DNA from: an uncultured delta proteobacterium
GTDB taxonomy: Bacteria; Desulfobacterota; Binatia; Bin18
Direction of reading: 5' to 3'
DNA length: 64,000 nucleotides
Assembly: GCA_963733195.1 (NCBI GenBank)
Contig: CAVTCR010000012.1
Coordinates: forward strand, 32,001 to 96,000
The first letter of the stretch is position 1; every line of letters starts with the position of its first letter. Below are positions 30,884-62,030 of this stretch, one piece after another. A program made the position numbers and the translations under genes. The notes under the pieces are model-generated. The model saw only the letters and a program-made list of their open reading frames with translations, did no database searches and was not told where the DNA came from.

Positions 30884-32321
30884 TTATCCGTACAATACCC
30901 AGGTATCTTTACTTCCTCCCCCTTGAGAGGAGTTCACAACTAGAGAGCCTTTCTTGAGTGCAACACGAGTCAGACCGCCGGGAAGTACATAAATGTCAGA
31001 GCCATACAAAATGTACGGTCGCAAATCGACATGCCGCCCTTCAAAATGATCATCAACGATCACCGGCACCCGTGATAAGGATAAGGTCGGTTGCGCGATG
31101 TAGTTGCGTGGATTGGCCCGAATGCGTTCTGCAAACTGTTCACGCTCGGCAGCAGTCGCATGTGGACCGACCAACATTCCGTATCCACCTGATTCGTTGG
31201 CAGCTTTGACGACGAGTTGGTCAAGGTGATCAAGGACATAGGCACGTTCTTTCTCATCCCAGCAGACATAGGTGGGGACATTGGGAATGATACTGTCTTC
31301 ACCGAGATAGTATTTGATGATCTTCGGGACATAGGCATACATGACTTTGTCATCGACAATGCCTGTGCCCGGTGCATTTGCCAACGCGATTCGTCCGGCT
31401 TTGTAGACATCCATCAACCCAGGAACGCCTAAGGACGAATCAGGCCGGAAGGTCAGCGGATCAAGAAAATCATCGTCGATACGCCGATAGAGGACATCAA
31501 CCTGCTTGAGCCCTCTCGTCGTGCGCATTTGGACCAGACCGTCAGCAACAACGAGGTCTCGTCCTTCGACCAGTTCCACTCCCATCTGTTGGGCCAAAAA
31601 CGAGTGCTCGAAGTAGGCCGAGTTGTATGTCCCAGGAGTAAGACACCGCCACGGTCGGGGATTGGATATACTCAGCCGCAAGCGCTTGGAGCATAGCTAA
31701 GAGATGACCAGGATAATCATCAACTGGCCGGACACGGGACTCTCCGAAGACTTGCGGAAACGTCCGCTTGAGAATCTGGCGACTTTCCAAGACATAAGAA
31801 ACTCCAGACGGACAGCGCAGGTTGTCTTCCAGCACATACATTTGTCCGTTACGGTCACGAACCAGGTCCGTACCAGTGATATGACACCACACGCCGCGAG
31901 GCGGGTTGAGCCCAACGCACGCCTGACGAAACGATCGCGCTGAATAGACGATCTCTTCAGGGATGATCTTATCTTTGAGCAGTTTCTGCTCATGATACAT
32001 GTCGTTGATAAAGAGATTCAGAGCGTACACACGCTGCTTGAGCCCCCGCTCTATCCATTCCCATTCTGCCGATTCAATAATGCGGGGAACTATGTCGAAA
32101 GGGAAAATGCGTTCTGTTCCTGAATTGTCACCATACACATTAAAGGTAATACCCCGGTGCAACAAAGCACGTTCAGCAGCCTGCTGACGCTGGAGCAGTT
32201 CACCCTTAGATAGTGAATCAATTCGCTGTTGGAGGAGGCGCGCGCCAGGACGAGGCTGATCACTGGCCGCGAACATCTCGTCGTAAAAATCCCCAGTGTC
32301 GTAACTGTGAAAACTCGTCAT
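30884..32321 (-). CDS. Circularly permuted type 2 ATP-grasp protein (COG2308), frameshift near 31640
   Basis: [53 protein letters not shown]. Confidence 0.93.
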
Positions 32322-53400: not shown

Positions 53401-54687
53401 TCAACGCCGTGGCTTCTTTAGCAGAAAGAGTAGTGCGAACGCTACAAAGTTCAGAGCAGCGCTGAAGATGAAGGCGAGACTATAACTTCCGGTGATTGTG
53501 TATAAATAGCCAGCGATGAGGGGACCGAAAGCCGCAGGCGCACCAGAGACAGCAAAGATAAATCCAGCGATTGCCCCAACCGACAGCCGGCCAAAGAAAT
53601 CGCCAATGATCGCCGGGAATAATGCCGTAACTCCGCCGTATGACAGACCGAAGATTGCTGCTGCCGGGTACAGTGTCGCTAGACCTGAACTTATCGTGAA
53701 TCCGAGAAACCCAAGCGCTTGCAGCACAAAGCACAGTCCGAGGGTAGCGACCCGACCAAAACGATCGGAAATCGTACCAATGAACAATCGCCCAACTGAA
53801 CCAGCTAAACCGATAACGCTAATCGTCATCGCTGCGCGGAACTGGGGAATACCAAGGTCTACTGCGAATGGGACAATATGGACCATAGGCATAAAGACGA
53901 CGAGCCACGTGAGTGTGAAGATCAGATTAAGCAGCCAGAAAGGAGCCGTTCGTTTTGCTTCGGCTAATGTCCACTCATTGTTCGATGCAACCATTTGTGA
54001 CGTTGATGAGAAGGATGACGGTGAAGCGGGAATTTGACCATCAGGATGCAATCCCATCTGTTCAGGGTCACGTACAGTGAAGGCGGCACACAAGCCAATG
54101 ACGATGAGTCCGATCAGACCTAAGATCAAGTACGCGCTACGCCAACCATAGGCAGCAATCAACGCCGCTGCGAGGGGTGGAAAAAGAAACGTCCCGAAAC
54201 TTGCCCCACTGGACGTGAGGCCCAAGGCTAAACCACGTTTCTCGATGAACCAACGCACGACGGTGGCGTTACACGGGACATAAGCTGCACTCATCCCCGA
54301 CGCAGCGATGATGCCGAGAAATACGTACATGTGCCACAGAGCAGTGGCCTGGCTGGTTAGAATAATACCGATGCCGAGGAGACAGCCCCCAGTCGTAATG
54401 ACGAGGCGAGGTCCCCAGCGGTCAGTCAAGCGTCCACTGACAGCTCCGAGCGCACTATAGAGAAAAATATACAGGGCATAGGGGAGGGACAACGTATCTC
54501 GTCCCCAGCCCGTATCTTTCACAATCTCCGGCATAAACACGCCGAAGCTAAACTGAATACCGTAAGCAACACAGAGGATCGTGAACGCGCAGGCGACCAC
54601 CACCCAGCCGTAAAAAACGCGGCTTTGCTTAGCGATGTCTGCTGGTGCGATTCGCACCTCCATTGTTTCCTGCTCTATCTTGTCCAT
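53401..54687 (-). CDS. MFS transporter (OFA/MCT-like)
   Basis: FYGW.VV, GRLTDRWGPR, RWF..KRGLA.G; about 12 TM segments. Confidence 0.9.
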   Translation of the reverse strand: MDKIEQETMEVRIAPADIAKQSRVFYGWVVVACAFTILCVAYGIQFSFGVFMPEIVKDTGWGRDTLSLPYALYIFLYSALGAVSGRLTDRWGPRLVITTGGCLLGIGIILTSQATALWHMYVFLGIIAASGMSAAYVPCNATVVRWFIEKRGLALGLTSSGASFGTFLFPPLAAALIAAYGWRSAYLILGLIGLIVIGLCAAFTVRDPEQMGLHPDGQIPASPSSFSSTSQMVASNNEWTLAEAKRTAPFWLLNLIFTLTWLVVFMPMVHIVPFAVDLGIPQFRAAMTISVIGLAGSVGRLFIGTISDRFGRVATLGLCFVLQALGFLGFTISSGLATLYPAAAIFGLSYGGVTALFPAIIGDFFGRLSVGAIAGFIFAVSGAPAAFGPLIAGYLYTITGSYSLAFIFSAALNFVAFALLFLLKKPRR

Positions 54688-54963
54688 ACATTTGCCGCGT
54701 CCAATGAAAAATTAAAAATGAAGAATTAAAAATAAATACCACCCTATTCCTTCAATTCTTCATTTTTCACTCGAGGTCATGTCAAATAGTGTGTAAACGA
54801 AGTAGGTGGAGATCCCCTCTGTGAGAGTATCTCGTTAGTCTACAACAAGAGCATCTATTGAGTTTCGTAAAAAGAAAGAAACACTATCGAAGGTCGCAAC
54901 GCTCGATTTAGCATGATTTCTTGAGGCTTGAACCGTTTCATTCTTTACGCGGATTTCAATAGC

Positions 54964-56169
54964 TTACTCTTCTCCAAAAAAGCGTCGCTTCACGGTGGCA
55001 CTGATCGGAGCGTCGGGGCCCATGCCAAAGAGATCTGGCATGCGGGCACCATCTTGGGCGATCAAGGACAGCGCCCGAGTACGGCGTGTGTCGGCTTCAG
55101 GTCCCGTCTCCAAGAACATACTTCTGTACCAGTCTTCCAGCGTGTGAATGACCTGGAAATTCCGGTGCTGCTCCTCGGCGTACGCGTGTCCAGCGGTTTC
55201 CCAGTCCTCGGTCTTGAGCAATTGGTCCCGTAAGAGCCGGACACTGCGGAGCGTCATAGCTAGCCCCTGCCCGAAGGAGGGATCACAGGTCGACGCGGCA
55301 TCCCCTACCAGGGCAACGCCCTCTTTATAAGGATGCTTCACCCAGGAGTCATCAGATCCAAAGCTCGCCAAGGGACCCACTGCTCGTGCGTGCTTGTACA
55401 GGTCAGCCGCCGCTCCTGTGCGGAGCGATTCGTCAATGAGCCGCGGGATATCGGCTACGGTCTGGAACCGGCGATGGATGTCTTTAGGGTAGCCGAGATA
55501 GGCGCGCACCCAGCCACGCCCAACATTCCCTAGAAAGACTTCTTGCCCATTGGTCGGATTCAGCACCGCATACCACGTATCTGATGCCAGCGGTACGTTC
55601 TCCAGTAGTACCCCCGCAAATAGCCGCCGTTGAGGATCATACTGCACTTCGAAGCCGCCCCACTGACGCGTGGGGGAGGAACGTCCATCCGCAGCAACCA
55701 CTAATCGCGCATGCACTTCCTCCCTCTGCCCATTGTGGTCAACCGACACCGTCGGAACTCTGCCAGGTCGCACTTCACGTACCTGCGTGCCACGCCACAC
55801 TTCAGCCCCTGCTTCCTCGGCAGCGGTGAGCAAGACTTCTTGCATGTCTGGATGATAAAAGCCGAACAACGGGGACTGATGCGGTGTGGTGGCAATGAAA
55901 TCACGATGGGCAATCATATCGGGACCCAAGTAGATATCCCACCAGCGCACCTCCAGGCCACAGGTCGTGCGTAACAGCTCATAGATTCCGAGGGCCTTAG
56001 CTTCCGGGACACCCCAGGCGTGCATGCCTTCCCCTCGCACGCGGTCCTTGAAGTGGGTCTCTCGCTCCAGCACCAGCACGCGCGCACCGTGTTCGGCCAT
56101 CGCTTTAGCCAAAGCCGCACCGCCTAAGCCACCACCGACCGTGATGATATCGTAGATCCCGCTTGCCAT
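54964..56169 (-). CDS. FAD-dependent monooxygenase/oxidoreductase
   Basis: VGGGLGG, LERE..F.DRVRGE, AADGRSS, LVGDAA..DP..GQG. Confidence 0.88.
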   Translation of the reverse strand: MASGIYDIITVGGGLGGAALAKAMAEHGARVLVLERETHFKDRVRGEGMHAWGVPEAKALGIYELLRTTCGLEVRWWDIYLGPDMIAHRDFIATTPHQSPLFGFYHPDMQEVLLTAAEEAGAEVWRGTQVREVRPGRVPTVSVDHNGQREEVHARLVVAADGRSSPTRQWGGFEVQYDPQRRLFAGVLLENVPLASDTWYAVLNPTNGQEVFLGNVGRGWVRAYLGYPKDIHRRFQTVADIPRLIDESLRTGAAADLYKHARAVGPLASFGSDDSWVKHPYKEGVALVGDAASTCDPSFGQGLAMTLRSVRLLRDQLLKTEDWETAGHAYAEEQHRNFQVIHTLEDWYRSMFLETGPEADTRRTRALSLIAQDGARMPDLFGMGPDAPISATVKRRFFGEE

Positions 56170-56270
56170 ATTCCTCTCACTTGTCGCGCCGAAGCTTACG
56201 TTCTGCTTTCCGTTTCTGTCCTGCAAAAGCTTTGTTCTAGGCAGAAGGCAGGAGTCGTACCGATGCGGTG

Positions 56271-59200
56271 TCAGGCCAACTCTTCCAGCAACGCCTTCGC
56301 CTCTTGCAAATCCTTCGTATCAAACCCTTCGGTAAACCAATTGTAGATCTCTGCCAACAGCTTGTGAGCTTCGGTCTTCTTACCTTGTTGTTGCCACAGC
56401 CGGCTGAGGCTCATCACCGCCCGCAGCTCCACGACTTCGCACTCTGTCGACGGGCAATCTCGATGGCCTTCTGGAAATACACTTCGCCTCCGCCTCTGCT
56501 TGGCGGACTCGAGATTGGAGGCTTGGGAGCTGGTGACTTGCAGCCTTAGACTTTTGCAGCGTCAGCTTACCTTTCAGCCGATACAGCTCCGCCTCGCTAG
56601 AACCCTCCCCAACTTTCTCCACCTCAGCCAGCGCCTCGGCTAGCATCGTTAAGCCCTTCTTCGGCCTGTCCTCGCTCTGCCATACGCCTCGGCCAGTAGG
56701 GCAAGAAACCATGCGTACTAGTTCCTCTGCTCCTATGGCCCGAAAGGCAGCTAGGCCTTGGCGAATCTGTGCAATGCCCTTCTTCTCCTCGTCCTTGCTC
56801 GGCCAGCGCCCAGCCCTGCAGGATGGTTCCCCATGCCAACCAGAACGGAAACCCCTGCTCGTCGCAGAGTGCAATCACTGCCTCTGCCTGCTCTTGGGCT
56901 GCCTGCACCTCCCGGCGGAACTGATGGAGCATGGCTGCAAAGTCCAGAGCAAAAGCCAGGCTAAAAGGGTGAGACAACTCCTGGGCTAGGGTGAGAGCCT
57001 TATGGCTCTTCTTCAGGGCTTGGTCCGGATAGCCAAGACACCATAGGACCAAGGCCGCATAGGAGAGGCAAACTACCCTGGGGTCCTGACCATAGAGGAA
57101 GGCGAGGGAACGATGCCGATGGGGGTCGTAAAGGGCAATCGCCCTGTTCCAGGTGGTCTTCGGCCAGGGAATGAACTCTCCCAGGCAATGCAAGGTGTCC
57201 CCTAGAGCATAGTGGGCTTTACAAGGAGCCCGGGTCTTGGACGCTCTGGGCTAAGCTGCAGAGCATTGCTCCCCTAGCTCACGCGCCATCTGTACTCCGC
57301 CCGCATCAAATAAAATACCCACAGCCCCCACAGCACCGGGAAGAGCTGCGGGGTCTCGCCGATCTGCTGACAGAGCTCCCGGGCCCGGGTGTAGGTTCTT
57401 TCCACCTCCGGGGCGGCATAGCCCTTGGTCGCCATGAGCGGCACGCCGAGGGCGATTTGCAGCGTGAGTTCTTGCTGAGCGCGCTCAGGCGTGTCCGGGA
57501 GGGCTTCGAGGACCTCGAGCCCCTTGGTGAGATGGCTAATCGCTTCTACATTGGCTGAACTCCGAGCAGCTTTCTCGCCCGGCCTTCTGCCAATACGGAA
57601 CGGCCTGCTCTAGAAGGCCAGCCTCGGTGTAGTGATGCGCCACCAGCTCTGGCTGCGTTTCTTTGATGTCTGGGAATCGTTCGTCTAAAACCCGAGCAAT
57701 CTGTTGGTGATACTGCTGCCGCCGGCTCTTCAGGAGCGATTGATAAGCCGCATCCTGGATCAAGGCATGCTTGAAGACATAGCGGGCTTGTGGGGGCAGC
57801 CCCCGCTGGTACAGCACTTCCGCTTCCACTAGCTTAGCCAGCGCTTGCTGAAGGCTTTTCTCGTCCCCCGGTGCGATTGCTTGAATGATCTCATAAGGAA
57901 ATTCCCGCCCCAAGGTCGCCCCAATCTGTGCGATCTCTCGGGCTGTCGCTAACCGATCGAGCCGTGCCATGAGCGAGTCTTGCAGCGTGGTTGGAATTGC
58001 GAGTGGGGGCAAAGGGCCGGCTAACTCATACTGGCCGTTTGCCTCCTGTAGTAACCCCGACTCTAGCACCATTTTCGTCAGCTCTTCGACAAACAACGGC
58101 ACGCCATCTGTCTTATTGACAATTTGGTTCTGCACCTCAGTCGGTAACGGCTTACCGCCGGTGACCTTCCTGATCATCTCCCCTGCTTGCGTGCGCGGCA
58201 GTCGGGCTAGGGTCAGTGGGGTGAGGTGTGTGCGACTGCTCCACGGCGGTGTAAACTCGGGCCGCGCGGTTAACAGCACCAGCAGCCGGGCTGTCGGCAC
58301 TTGGTCGAGCAGGAGGCCTAAGAGTTCTAAGGTGGAGGGATCAGCCCAGTGCACGTCCTCCCACACACAGTACACCAGGTGCCGCTCGGCTTCTTCCATG
58401 AGCCACGCGACTAACGCTTCTTGAGTCTTCTGCTTCTGTTTCTGTGGACTCAACGTCAGCGGTGGGGCGTCCTCCGGCTGGGGCAAGGAGAGCAAGGCGG
58501 CCAAAAGTGAGGGAGTGTCAGACTGGGGGAAGTGATAGCGCGTCAAAATCTGCTGGAGTTTAGCAAGCTTGGTTTGGGCTATATCGTCCCGCTCAAACTG
58601 TAATACTCGTTGCAGATGAGTGAGCACTGGATAGAGCGCACTATTCTGATGATACGGGGAGCAACGAAACTCCCAGCAGGTGACTCCCTGCTGTACGACT
58701 CGCTCCTTCACCTCCTGCACGAGGCGGGATTTCCCAATGCCCGGCTCACCGTTCAGGAACACCACTTGTCCATCGCCTGCCTGTGCGGCGGTCCACCGCT
58801 CTACGATCAACCCTACCTCATGGGCTCTGCCCACCAAGGGAGTTAATCTGCCCGCGCTGACCTCGATCTCCAGCCGACTTTGGGCGCTGCTCTCTCTCAG
58901 CACCCGATAGATCTGGACGGGAGCAGAGACACCTTTTACGGACTGGAGTCCGCCATCGTGGCAGTCAAAGAAGCCTGCGATGAGCCGCTGGGTGGCGGCG
59001 CTGATGACTACCGTATTCGGCTCCGCAAGTCCTTGCAGGCGAGCCGCGATATTGGGGGTGTCGCCCAAGGCTAACTGTTCGCGCTTACCACTACCAATCT
59101 CACCTACGACTACCAGTCCAGTGTGAATGCCAAGGCGCACTTGCACGCCCTGTGCTTGGAGTAACGGAGCGTGGCGTATGGCCTCCACTATCCCTAAGGC

Positions 59201-59722
59201 TGTCCGTACGGCCCGCTGTGCATCTTCCTCGTGGGCATTGGGATAGCCGAAGTAGATCAGCAGGCCATCGCCCAGATATTGCGCGATATGCCCATCAACA
59301 CGGTGGACCACCTCCGCACAGATCTCCTGATACGTCTGCACTACCTCCCGCCACTCTTCTGGATCCAGGCGCTCGGCGAGCGCCGTGGAGTCCACCAAGT
59401 CACAGAACATCACGGTGAGTTGGCGCCGCTCGGCTTCCGGTGCAGCGGGATGCGATCTCAGAGGAGGTATGGAGTGGTCTGCGCGTTGCCGGGATAAACG
59501 CCCGGCCGGCTGACCCGCGGTTTTCTGGGCTTTGCGCTTGGGACTTTTGGCTTTCGGCGCGGTCTCGCTCGCCCCCAAAGCAGTCCCGCACTCTGCACAG
59601 AAGCGGGCCTGGGGCAGATTCTCTATCCCACAGCTGGGACAGCGGTGTTCGAGAGGCTTCCCACAGCCGATGCAGAACTTGGCTCCCGCAGGATTCTCAC
59701 CCCCACAGCTTGGACACTGCAT
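56271..59722 (-). CDS. Double zinc ribbon-class III cyclase-STAND ATPase-TPR protein, frameshifts in the TPR region
   Basis: CPSC..FCIGC..CPSC..FCAEC; MFCDLVDST, LGDG, NIAARLQ; GEPGIGKS, WEDVHW; FKHALIQDAAY; tail WFTEGFDTKDL. Confidence 0.88.
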
Positions 59723-59778
59723 GGTGTCTCTTTACCTCTTCTGGCTTTCCGGGCAAGGCAAACGACTGGTCCCAGCAA

Positions 59779-60395
59779 TCAGGCAGCGATCCTCTCTCGC
59801 GTGCGCGCCGTCTGCTGCACGCCATCGACATACTGTGCACCGGCATAGACGGCGGGCAGCAACTCCGCTCCTTTGCAGCGTCGAAATGTCGATTCCGCCA
59901 CTTGCAATAGCTTCCAGGTCATCGAGTCGTCGTGCTTCCATGCCTCATACTCCACCTGCCATTGGGTCTTCAGCCGCAACAAGGCGGCAGGAGACAGCGG
60001 CGCACCTTCGCCCAAAAGACCTCGCAACGCTAGCTCGAAATCTCCCAAGGCTAAGCCGTGGAGATCGAGTTGGGGCAGTAACTCTCCCACTTCTTTGGTC
60101 TGGCGTTTGAACAGCGGCAATACGCGACTGCAAACCGCTCGTTGAGGTCGCGGACCGGGGCCGGACGGTAATGTCCCATTGGTCAACGTGAGCCGCCGGG
60201 GCTTGCCATAGCCATTGCGATGCCTGGGCGGCATCGACCGCCTCTCGCCGGGCTGACTTCGTGCGTCCTAATAACTCGTGACTTCTTCTTCCAACAGCGC
60301 TTGGATGAACTGCGGATCTATTCCCGGACAAAGTCTTCTAAGCGCTCCCACGTATTGCTGGCCTTCGGCTCTGGGGTGGTGGCCTTTTGCGTCAT
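59779..60395 (-). pseudogene. IS256-family transposase remnant, internally deleted
   Basis: RNGYGKPR.LT, LPQL.LHGLALGDFELALRGLLG joined directly to WKLLQVAE..FRR; the DDE core is missing; in-frame stop near the 5' end. Confidence 0.8.
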
Positions 60396-60586
60396 GGCGT
60401 TTCTCCTTCTCTGCCCGGGCTCAAAACCCGGTGTGTTAGGTCACCTGAGAGGATACGTCGCCTAACCCGTGTTTCCACACCTTTGGGTTATACCTCTTTT
60501 CCCTCTTAATTCTTCATTAAAGGCCAAGGGCCTTAGCAATGTTCACCCCGCTGAATGTCATCGGTCCGCAGTATCCAACCCGGCAA

Positions 60587-61586
60587 GATGTTGTCAAGGG
60601 AACAGCGTGGGGCTACACCTGCTACTCGATTATGTCAGAATTCGCCCCAATAGGAAGTAAAGTCTTGCGGTGGTCTCACTTCCTGTTCTTTTATGCTGCT
60701 GCCAAGGAGGTCAGGAGAATTCGTGTACGAGCTGTGTGGAGGAGCCGCCGTTGCGCAAGCGATATGACCTCATTCCGGTATGACCTCGGGCGCAGAAAGT
60801 TCCGGACTTCATCATGCACGCGGCAAAAGCGTTTCGCCGACTCGACACTTTTGAAGCCCCCCATCGGCCGTATGCGCTGTTTGATTCCTCTATGGTCCTG
60901 TTCCAGGTGGTTGTTCAAATAGCGGTTCGTGCGATGGCGTACCTCCTCCCCTAACGTGGCTTTGATCGCACCGGGATAGGCGTCGTGTCCATCCCTGGTG
61001 ACCCGCTCCGGGACACGACCGGTGACGGTACGTGCGGAGCGAAAGAAGGCTTCTGCCGCTGCCTTGTCCCGTTTCTCGCTCAACAAGACATCAACGAGAT
61101 TTCCATCCCGATCGATCGCCCGGTACAGGTAGACCGAGCGCCCTTTCACTTTGATGAATGTCTCGTCCACATACCAACTCGGCCCGATTCGTCCCTCGCC
61201 GGTGCTTGCGTAGCGTCTCGCTCAACAGCGGGGCGAGCTGCGCTTCCCACTCCCGCACCGCCTCATGGGTAAAGACCAAGCCCCGCTCCAGGAACATTTC
61301 TGGTAGATCCCGCAGACTCAATTTGTAGCGTACGCGCCAGAGCACCACGAGACACACGACATCGGTGGGATACTGCAGGTGGTTAAAGCGTGTGCCGGTC
61401 CGCTCATTGAATTCCCGCTTGCAGGCACGGCACCGAAAGCGTCGGTAGCCGAGCGCGGTTCGTTCTCGTCGTTCAGTCGTGTCAGCCGACTCACAGTGTG
61501 GACACCCCATCGTCCTCCCCTCCTCAAAGCGAATGGCTACACGCTCCTTTTCTCAGACACAAGTTGGGAGGGTTCCTGACAGAGCC
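60587..61586 (-). mobile_element. IS6-family element; transposase 60691-61511 with frameshift near 61190
   Basis: Zn ribbon, YKLSLRDL.EM, DETFIKV, YLYRAID, LNNHLEQDHR; left end GGCTCTGTCAGG at 61586; right end GATGTTGTCAAG is tentative. Confidence 0.8.
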
Positions 61587-62030
61587 AGCTCCAGAGCTCG
61601 TCTACTTCGGCTTCCAGCCGATGCAGGAGCACTCTTTGGGTGTCTGATGCCGGCTGGACATAGAGATGATCCGGAGCTGCGGGAAAACGTTCAACCATGA
61701 ACTGCAGGAGCCAGCGGAGCCCTACCCCTATCACGCGGCAGATCCCACGCAGTGAGATGCGCTCCAGCAACAGTCGTTCAATCACCGCCCGCTGCTCCTC
61801 CGTGATGACATGATTTTCTGGAACAAGGACAAAGGCACGTCCACAGGTTTTGCACTTGTGGTTTTGTTTCTCCGTGTGAATGCGGCCATTCCTCTTATAC
61901 TGTCTCGATCCACATTGGGGACATACCTCTCTTTTGATCATAGTGCTCCCTCTGACCTCCCTCTAGCAGTTCACGGTTCTGGCCAAGGGTAGCACGAATA
62001 CTATGAGAGCCTTACCCGGATAGCACTACC
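61587..62030 (-). mobile_element. IS1-family remnant (5' part), interrupted by IS6
   Basis: End GGTAGTGCTATCCGGG at 62030; CPQC...CKTC, SLRGICR, then EVDELWS cut by the IS6 end. Confidence 0.8.

Follow-up and report, generated by a model that had tools for sequence, protein, structure and literature searches.

The DNA examined here is a stretch of 64,000 nt, called the window below, from an uncultured delta proteobacterium of the Binatia (Desulfobacterota; Bin18). It covers positions 32,001 to 96,000 of contig CAVTCR010000012.1 in assembly GCA_963733195.1. The genome holding it (G000) amounts to 6.95 Mb in 87 contigs, designated by C-numbers, and the window lies on C12. Positions 54773-60496 delimit a 5724-bp segment bounded by imperfect inverted repeats that contains a remnant of an IS256-family insertion sequence (IS) transposase, a gene for a STAND NTPase with tetratricopeptide repeats (TPR) and a gene for an FAD-dependent monooxygenase (FADmo). 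All genes between the two ends are on the minus strand. The features of the segment and of its borders are the following.

54703-54763, no strand: target sequence on the left of the element, made up of the left arm, the loop and the beginning of the right arm of a palindromic AT-rich heptamer array, recognised from its sequence, from the genome-wide occurrence of this array type and from the phase restored after removal of the element
54764-54772, no strand: first copy of the target-site duplication, TTTTCACTC, matching 60497-60505 at 8/9 positions
54773-54798, plus: cargo-side terminal inverted repeat (conventional IRR, far from the transposase), defined by the end profile and by a soil contig whose likeness stops at 54773
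54799-54834, minus: relic of the last ~12 transposase codons and stop, from alignment with the ends of plain IS relatives (stop ~29 nt from the tip)
54835-54848, minus: putative relic of the STAND stop codon and last codons, deduced from ~14 nt that align, with high posterior probability, to profile positions 67-88, whose sequence in other copies comes from STAND
54964-56226, minus: FADmo, open 420-aa frame, the second cargo (Pfam FAD_binding_3, 4.7e-23)
56271-59722, minus: Zn-ribbon / class III cyclase / AAA_16 STAND NTPase / TPR gene, the first and family-wide cargo (Pfam)
59723-59778, minus: 56-nt spacer separating the stop of the transposase from the start of STAND; it contains a purine-rich ribosome-binding stretch, is conserved among copies and has no inverted repeat
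59779-60395, minus: IS256-family transposase remnant with ~0.6 kb of internal loss (residues ~141-348) and a frame break, from matches to relatives
60407-60496, minus: transposase-side end (conventional IRL), whose terminal 26 nt are 60471-60496, defined by eight copies with unrelated flanks and by the end profile
60497-60505, no strand: second copy of the target-site duplication, TTTTCCCTC, matching the first at 8/9 positions
60506-60519, no strand: remaining right arm of the split heptamer array, TTAATTCTTCATTA, from its sequence and the phase restoration

The 26-nt arms 54773-54798 and 60471-60496 are identical at 17 of 26 positions (65%), and both these arms and the flanking 9-bp near-duplication lie where a preliminary description of the region had placed them. 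The arm pair alone does not rise above chance, and the case for its reality rests on comparison with other copies of the ends. A regular expression search of G000 with the end pattern gave 17 sites, 15 of which were kept (8 transposase-side and 7 cargo-side); the two sites dropped, C19:142286 and C60:108579, have nothing end-like beyond the pattern. The transposase-side end is present eight times with unrelated flanks, while the cargo-side end forms a second conserved class with seven strong copies. These copies were used to build a 90-nt profile for each end type. When the whole of G000 is searched, the cargo-side profile matches 54773-54848 (E 5.2e-11) and the transposase-side profile matches the other window end (E 6.7e-22); at E<=1e-5, 20 cargo-side and 10 transposase-side ends are found.

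A match of at least 8/9 positions has a probability of ~1e-4 in random sequence. The heptamer array is split by the element, as had been noticed before, and deleting 54773-60505 yields five in-phase heptamers (CTTCAAT TCTTCAT TTTTCAC TCTTAAT TCTTCAT) that mirror the left arm of the array. A 9-bp duplication would shift the 7-nt phase by 2; the restored phase is therefore evidence of a true duplication. The GC fraction is 0.58-0.61 within the element versus 0.44-0.53 at its flanks.

The transposase remnant aligns to residues 11-140 and 349-396 of an open 396-aa relative and is 69-71% identical to the product of locus L023 over these residues. Its own open reading frames (ORFs) give no Pfam match at E<0.01. 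The stretch that is missing includes D154, D218 and E326, candidate residues that we take, from their motif pattern, to be the catalytic triad. With the DDE core not intact, the window copy is non-autonomous. The STAND gene product starts with a double zinc ribbon. Its residues 1-728 are encoded in one open frame (57536-59722), and the TPR part is distributed over at least three frames. FADmo scores below every NCBIfam cut-off. This gene content agrees in full with the preliminary description: a minus-strand transposase devoid of its DDE core, a zinc ribbon-cyclase-STAND-TPR gene and an FAD monooxygenase.

The same layout is found repeatedly in G000. Each of the eight transposase-side ends leads into a transposase remnant, a STAND gene or both, lying on the same strand. 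At six of the seven cargo-side ends the 3' part of a TPR/STAND gene reads towards the end, and the seventh retains only an 81-nt STAND terminus. Six inward-facing end pairs enclose a STAND gene over 3767-6256 bp, which answers positively the question of whether other STAND genes are bracketed by these ends, and four of the six have near-perfect 8-9-bp duplications:

Window (C12): 5724 bp; flanking repeats 8/9
C35: 6256 bp; CTCATGCTA / CTCATGCTG, 8/9; group II intron inside
C25: 4517 bp; GTTCGTACC / TTTCGTACC, 8/9
C66: 4060 bp; CGTCAAAC / CGTCAAAT, 7/8
C34: 3767 bp; flanking repeats ~6/8
C84: 5079 bp; no clear flanking repeats

A doubtful seventh pair (C81:115088-123177) has no duplication that we could find. 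In C34 and C72 the STAND gene is retained and the transposase is gone. The C35 element is interrupted by a gene for a group II intron reverse transcriptase/maturase (C35:5800-7250, or L014:5006-6400; RVT_1 9e-40, GIIM 2e-10), and its transposase carries a stop that arose by a CGA to TGA change. Programmed read-through of in-frame TGA codons was considered and rejected: this stop and that of G013:C189 (TGG to TGA) are at different codons. In the end-paired C25 copy (L015:614-3880) the N-terminal effector of the STAND protein is a Trans_reg_C DNA-binding domain that replaces the zinc ribbon and the cyclase, hence the effector module of the cargo varies within the element family.

Complete and open versions exist outside G000. 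Among 25 transposase-related loci of species-representative genomes, a STAND gene follows the transposase in five (L023, L024, L027, L029, L045), 13 are plain IS and seven could not be judged. The L029 element, 4975 bp long, is flanked by a perfect 8-bp duplication (CGGCCAAC), and its STAND gene is open over 1209 aa; in L023 an open transposase gene precedes an open STAND gene that runs off the contig. In G003, G013 and G016, which represent three further genera of the window's own family, STAND follows the transposase in 5/5 judgeable loci. The genomes of this family set and of the species-representative set possibly overlap, so the two counts are not independent. Fully open copies also occur on soil metagenome contigs. 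Of these, L084 (4883 bp) combines a transposase open over 423 aa with a cyclase-AAA_16-TPR gene open over 1135 aa, and is bordered by a perfect 8-bp duplication, ATTGTTGA; both genes are likewise open in L086, L090 and L097. The open STAND-bearing elements measure 4.86-4.98 kb. In a variant of 8336 bp (L099:6846-15181), a single open transposase gene is followed by cyclase-STAND genes of 1180 and 1208 aa in tandem.

We conclude that 54773-60496 is very probably a decayed, non-autonomous transporter IS, or unit transposon, of the IS256 family. The layout recurring with 8-9-bp duplications in G000, L029 and L084 upholds the earlier view of a non-autonomous IS256-type transporter with passengers between the transposase and the far end. 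The origin of this layout can be followed in the transposase. The best 80 transposase-related loci of the metagenome comparison, grouped by transposase identity to the query, are distributed as follows:

Identity >=83.8%, 32 loci: STAND next in 24, plain 0, no room 4, unresolved 4
Identity 75-80%, 15 loci: STAND next in 0, plain 14, unresolved 1
Identity 58-67%, 33 loci: STAND next in 0, plain 26, unresolved 7

Plain elements thus make up 40 of the 48 loci at 58-80% identity; the plain relatives are 1372-1383 bp long. A transposase tree was computed from 72 sequences (21 STAND-bearing, 48 plain and 3 with other cargo), 7 of 79 rows being omitted for lack of a 330-aa match. The STAND label requires one change on this tree, on a branch with SH-aLRT support of 100, and the STAND-bearing copies form one branch among plain IS. 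This single change indicates one capture of STAND, in a lineage derived from a plain 1.38-kb IS. The preliminary description had attributed the passengers to capture by the element. This has to be revised for STAND, which was not picked up by the window copy and is the ancestral cargo of the whole lineage; only FADmo is special to this sub-lineage.

Assignment to the IS256 family is supported by the transposase, the imperfect ends and the size of the duplications. NCBIfam IS256 NF033543 (cut-off 150) gives 271-272 bits for the open relatives L023 and L026, and PF00872 matches open transposases with 7.8e-54 and 2.3e-57. The IS256 family, in the ISfinder sense, makes target duplications of 8-9 bp, and perfect 8- or 9-bp duplications border the plain relatives L035, L040, L114, L132 and L152. 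In a sister lineage, with a transposase ~63% identical, a 328-aa NHL-repeat beta-propeller gene (L137:8293-9279, also in L135 and L136) sits between the transposase stop and the cargo-side repeat, that repeat being 1261 bp further out. It is a second, independent passenger at the same position as STAND.

The junctions of the cargo retain traces of how it entered. Plain relatives have their transposase stop ~29 nt from the tip. The transposase 3' end of STAND-bearing copies shares homology with theirs as far as TGATT and diverges beyond, and the cargo-side end keeps, beside the terminal repeat, a relic of the last ~12 transposase codons; ~36 nt are thus present on both sides of the cargo. The cargo side comprises only ~65 nt of IS sequence, and a second transposase was not found there. 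In the window, the real STAND terminus (56270-56292) has no end sequence after it. Together with the relic STAND stop at 54835-54848, this places the FADmo segment between two STAND termini. FADmo would accordingly be a second, later capture in the same style as STAND. These nested duplications could stem from a composite of two IS copies that collapsed, or from recombination between copies.

The FADmo-STAND-transposase order is found again in contig C3 of G000, where both ends are lost. Identity between the window and C3 is a mosaic: 98-99.6% in FADmo, 96-100% in the cyclase/NTPase region, 71-81% in the TPR part and 69-91% in the transposase. This mosaic indicates that exchange between copies occurred. 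The divergent TPR part (window 56250-57250) also has >40 gap columns relative to C3; either hypervariability of the repeats or a swap by recombination would account for this. The STAND paralogue of C3 has in addition a 680-bp insert in place of 8 nt at its stop codon (C3:89029-89707).

An alternative that we regard as unlikely, though the best of those considered, is that an ordinary 4.3-4.9-kb transposase-STAND unit inserted at this site and that FADmo came in later, not by transposition but through gene conversion or recombination in situ with a C3-like copy. The mosaic identity to C3 points to such exchange, and the two flanking STAND termini could act as recombination sites. Public sequencing runs, compared as contigs (the best run covered 0.21 of the sampled words), speak against it. 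The soil contig X3, of 2009 nt, has ~95% identity over 54773-56339 and then ~430 nt of unrelated sequence starting exactly at the tip. It holds the tip, FADmo and the STAND 3' end in one piece with the same tip and a different flank, therefore the FADmo-bearing form exists at another site. Whether FADmo arrived before or after, both ends of the window element belong to one insertion and not to different IS copies, the case that would have spoken against the preliminary description.

The STAND gene seems to have remained useful beyond transposition. Among the first 579 comparable codons, the window and C3 copies differ by 19 synonymous and 4 non-synonymous changes, a ratio of non-synonymous to synonymous rates (dN/dS) of 0.07. 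Since the transposases of both copies are dead, STAND was under selection after transposase decay. PADLOC recognises only the cyclase domain (PycC models, 1e-20 to 1e-4); none of its Avs/NLR models is matched and no Pycsar effector gene lies inside the element. Judging from these sequence features, the cargo is probably a signalling STAND NTPase useful to its host. Its closest described architecture is the cyclase/ATPase/TPR part of the TOMM system kinase/cyclase fusion proteins (TIGR03903), with which it shares the order class III cyclase, AAA_16, TPR. The L029 STAND protein matches positions 281-1266 of this model with 617.7 bits, below the curated cut-off of 705.75. The kinase part is absent and, unlike in the TIGR03903 proteins, the N-terminus is a double zinc ribbon and the gene is borne by a transposon. 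Mycobacterial cyclases of the Rv0386 type are also cyclase-ATPase-TPR signalling proteins.

The constant association of the two genes raises the possibility that STAND is a working transposition partner which regulates the process or selects targets. NTPase helpers are known from two-gene transposons such as IS21 (IstA/IstB) and Tn7 (TnsB/TnsC), where a P-loop NTPase gene follows the transposase gene on the same strand. The common strand and the 56-nt spacer are found here in every judgeable copy of the lineage, and 24 of the 32 closest metagenome loci have STAND next while none is plain. However, the decayed C34 and C72 copies retain STAND without the transposase, the low dN/dS is observed where both transposases are dead, the N-terminal effector varies (cyclase here, Trans_reg_C in C25) and more than 100 paralogues have no ends. 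In contrast to IstB and TnsC, this NTPase belongs to the signalling class AAA_16/STAND and possesses effector and sensor domains, and it was kept by purifying selection after transposase death. We consider a role as transposition partner improbable and privilege that of a passenger useful to the host rather than a transposition factor.

It is very improbable that the two ends are independent IS insertions or fragments that bracket chromosomal genes by accident, or the outer ends of a composite. IS debris does occur nearby (IS6- and IS1-like fragments on the right), the arms are only 65% alike and the cargo-side end bears relics of another gene end. Yet the flanking 9-mers agree at 8/9 positions with the heptamer phase restored, the bracketed layout recurs at least six times in G000 and is found open elsewhere with perfect duplications, and the cargo side has ~65 nt of IS sequence and no second transposase. 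An assembly chimera, produced by collapse of >100 similar STAND paralogues in a metagenome-assembled genome, could be suspected from the 87 contigs, the many broken frames and a TPR part that differs strongly from C3 with many indels, and has an equally small probability, because independent public contigs cover the critical joints at 95-99% identity (tip/FADmo in X3, X1 and X2; FADmo/STAND 3' end in X3; STAND 5'/transposase-remnant joint in X2, which carries a larger deletion) and the same layout appears in short-read assemblies and metagenome contigs.

Several observations weigh against the reading as a transporter IS inserted at this locus. The arm pair is absent from the 25 longest of 108 inverted pairs in a repeat search of the window, and the left 264 nt have no blastn match elsewhere in G000, being recognised by the end profile only. 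The duplication is imperfect, and a periodic AT-rich array makes partial matches likelier than random sequence does. The complete elements L086, L090, L097 and L027 are without target duplication. G000 has no cognate transposase with an open full-length frame, so nothing points to recent movement in this genome. No empty site was found in two genomes of the same genus or in matching public-run contigs: in those two genomes the sequence upstream of the orthologue of the MFS transporter gene that neighbours the element differs from the first base onwards and is orthologous to contig C38 of G000. These relatives therefore offer no clean empty site; nor do they carry the two genes at this locus, and the refuting case of both genes standing there without the ends was not encountered. 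Among matching public-run contigs there is none covering the whole of 54773-60496, nor an end-to-end (circle) joint. The STAND gene has at least three frame changes relative to the open L029 gene, with breaks near 57578-57531, 57296 and 56440, where public-run contigs give no high-identity cover; they may represent decay or be errors in the consensus of a long-read assembly. Around the STAND NTPase core, the open frames of G000 are often 400-900 aa long and those of G013 and G016 mostly >1000 aa, a difference due either to more decay in G000 or to indel errors in its assembly.

We propose that the transporter IS was formed in successive steps. The ancestor would be a plain 1.38-kb IS, made of an end, one DDE transposase and an end, that generated 8-9-bp target duplications. 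In one lineage a cyclase-STAND-TPR gene of ~3.4 kb with its own ribosome-binding site would have been placed directly after the transposase stop. STAND would then lie between two copies of the last ~12 transposase codons, giving a two-gene element of ~4.9 kb that transposes as a whole. In a sub-lineage the FADmo segment (~54850-56270) would have been added between the relic and the real STAND terminus. The 5.7-kb unit, or a 4.3-kb precursor, would have inserted in the heptamer palindrome upstream of the MFS gene with duplication of 9 bp, and the transposase catalytic core would have been lost after insertion. Of this scheme, both ends and the duplication are shown, as are the recurrence of the layout, the existence of open copies outside G000 and the one origin of STAND carriage on the transposase tree. 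By analogy with IS256, transposition may proceed by copy-out/paste-in through a circle. Co-transcription of STAND with the transposase is suggested by their arrangement, and the manner of cargo capture is deduced from the junctions.

The element family was also examined as a source of the numerous STAND genes of G000, which has 116 AAA_16-like loci and 134 cyclase loci. Twelve of the 116 are still linked to an element end. A tree of the NTPase core was built from 107 loci with unbroken core; the end-linked C34, C35, C66, C74, C77:957 and C84 are among those dropped. The nine end-linked copies that it contains need nine changes, at least seven of them forced by well-supported branches, against a mean of 8.8 for shuffled labels. 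This change count indicates that end-linked copies are scattered over all three deep clades, which fits an old association or exchange of cargo by recombination. Further STAND loci that may derive from the element (C60, C16, C77:18599, C44, C61 and C56) were hit by a profile of the spacer and transposase 3' end; as one row of that profile (L029) had been wrongly cut, these hits are hints only. The contribution of the element to the expansion to >100 STAND copies is only partly supported. The preliminary description had proposed the element as a route for expansion of these paralogues; the end-linked loci and their scatter over the tree favour this idea. Against it, G011 and G010, with 47-51 STAND matches, showed no cognate transposase, and genera with 2-7 matches lack one as well; these matches are not copy numbers, and the kin are not independent.

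The element lies to the right of an MFS transporter gene (53401-54687). On its other side, 60691-61941 contains an IS6-family transposase split over two frames (DDE_Tnp_IS240, 2e-37) as well as a zinc-ribbon ORF resembling InsA of IS1, and the region to the right is an IS landing zone. Palindromic heptamer arrays like the one that is split are found throughout G000 (53 matches of an 11-nt core). Their units, AATGAAG or AATTAAG and complements, are present at many gene ends, and 32-nt near-identical stretches of them occur in several related genomes.

Compared to known mobile elements, the window element combines traits of different formats. Composite transposons based on IS256, such as Tn4001, contain two complete IS copies. 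They resemble the present element in that machinery of the IS256 type moves genes not involved in transposition, but the window element has a single transposase and, at the cargo side, ~65 nt of IS sequence, so the composite format does not apply; a collapsed composite is one possible origin. Plain IS256-family elements, whose type is IS256 of staphylococci and enterococci, share with it the transposase family (NCBIfam IS256, Pfam Transposase_mut), imperfect repeats of ~26 nt and 8-9-bp duplications. They differ in the absence of the 3.4-kb gene and the second gene that lie here between the transposase stop and the far repeat. At 5724 bp the window element exceeds the simple-IS format (~1.3-1.5 kb, transposase only). 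One survey (PMC3942029) considered 109 IS256-family elements, found all of them to be simple IS, and cites a circular intermediate.

The transporter IS, as defined by ISfinder/TnCentral (bioRxiv 10.1101/2021.05.26.445724, PMC9330008), encloses passenger genes, together with a single transposase, within one pair of terminal repeats, and so does the window element. Duplications surround whole units in 4/6 G000 pairs (near-perfect), in L029 and in L084, in agreement with this definition. The catalogue text restricts transporter IS to two other families (10.1101/2021.05.26.445724), whereas the present element, a member of the IS256 family, carries a large STAND NTPase as passenger. We found no description of an IS256-family element with STAND cargo in the literature, a search that did not cover subscription journals or ISfinder.

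The IS256 family has been treated as transposase-only, and the present data describe a well-bounded IS256 lineage with a STAND sensor gene of 1100-1200 residues. The nested terminal duplications are a record of cargo entry into an IS. In annotation, many of the genes listed as "STAND paralogues" in these genomes should be recognised as transposon remnants. A broader proposal, which we advance tentatively and hold to be possible rather than probable, is that this transposon lineage is a main engine of the >100-copy STAND repertoires in one family of uncultured soil bacteria. Genes would spread with their own transposase and later shed transposase and ends while their TPR part diversifies; the IS group would also repeatedly add cargo at the transposase-distal end, leaving nested terminal duplications. 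The successive additions of STAND and FADmo, and the NHL-repeat gene of the sister lineage, fit such recurrent distal addition. The lineage offers a concrete, testable mechanism for NLR-like STAND copy numbers above 100 in some bacteria, and its open copies in public metagenomes allow direct tests.

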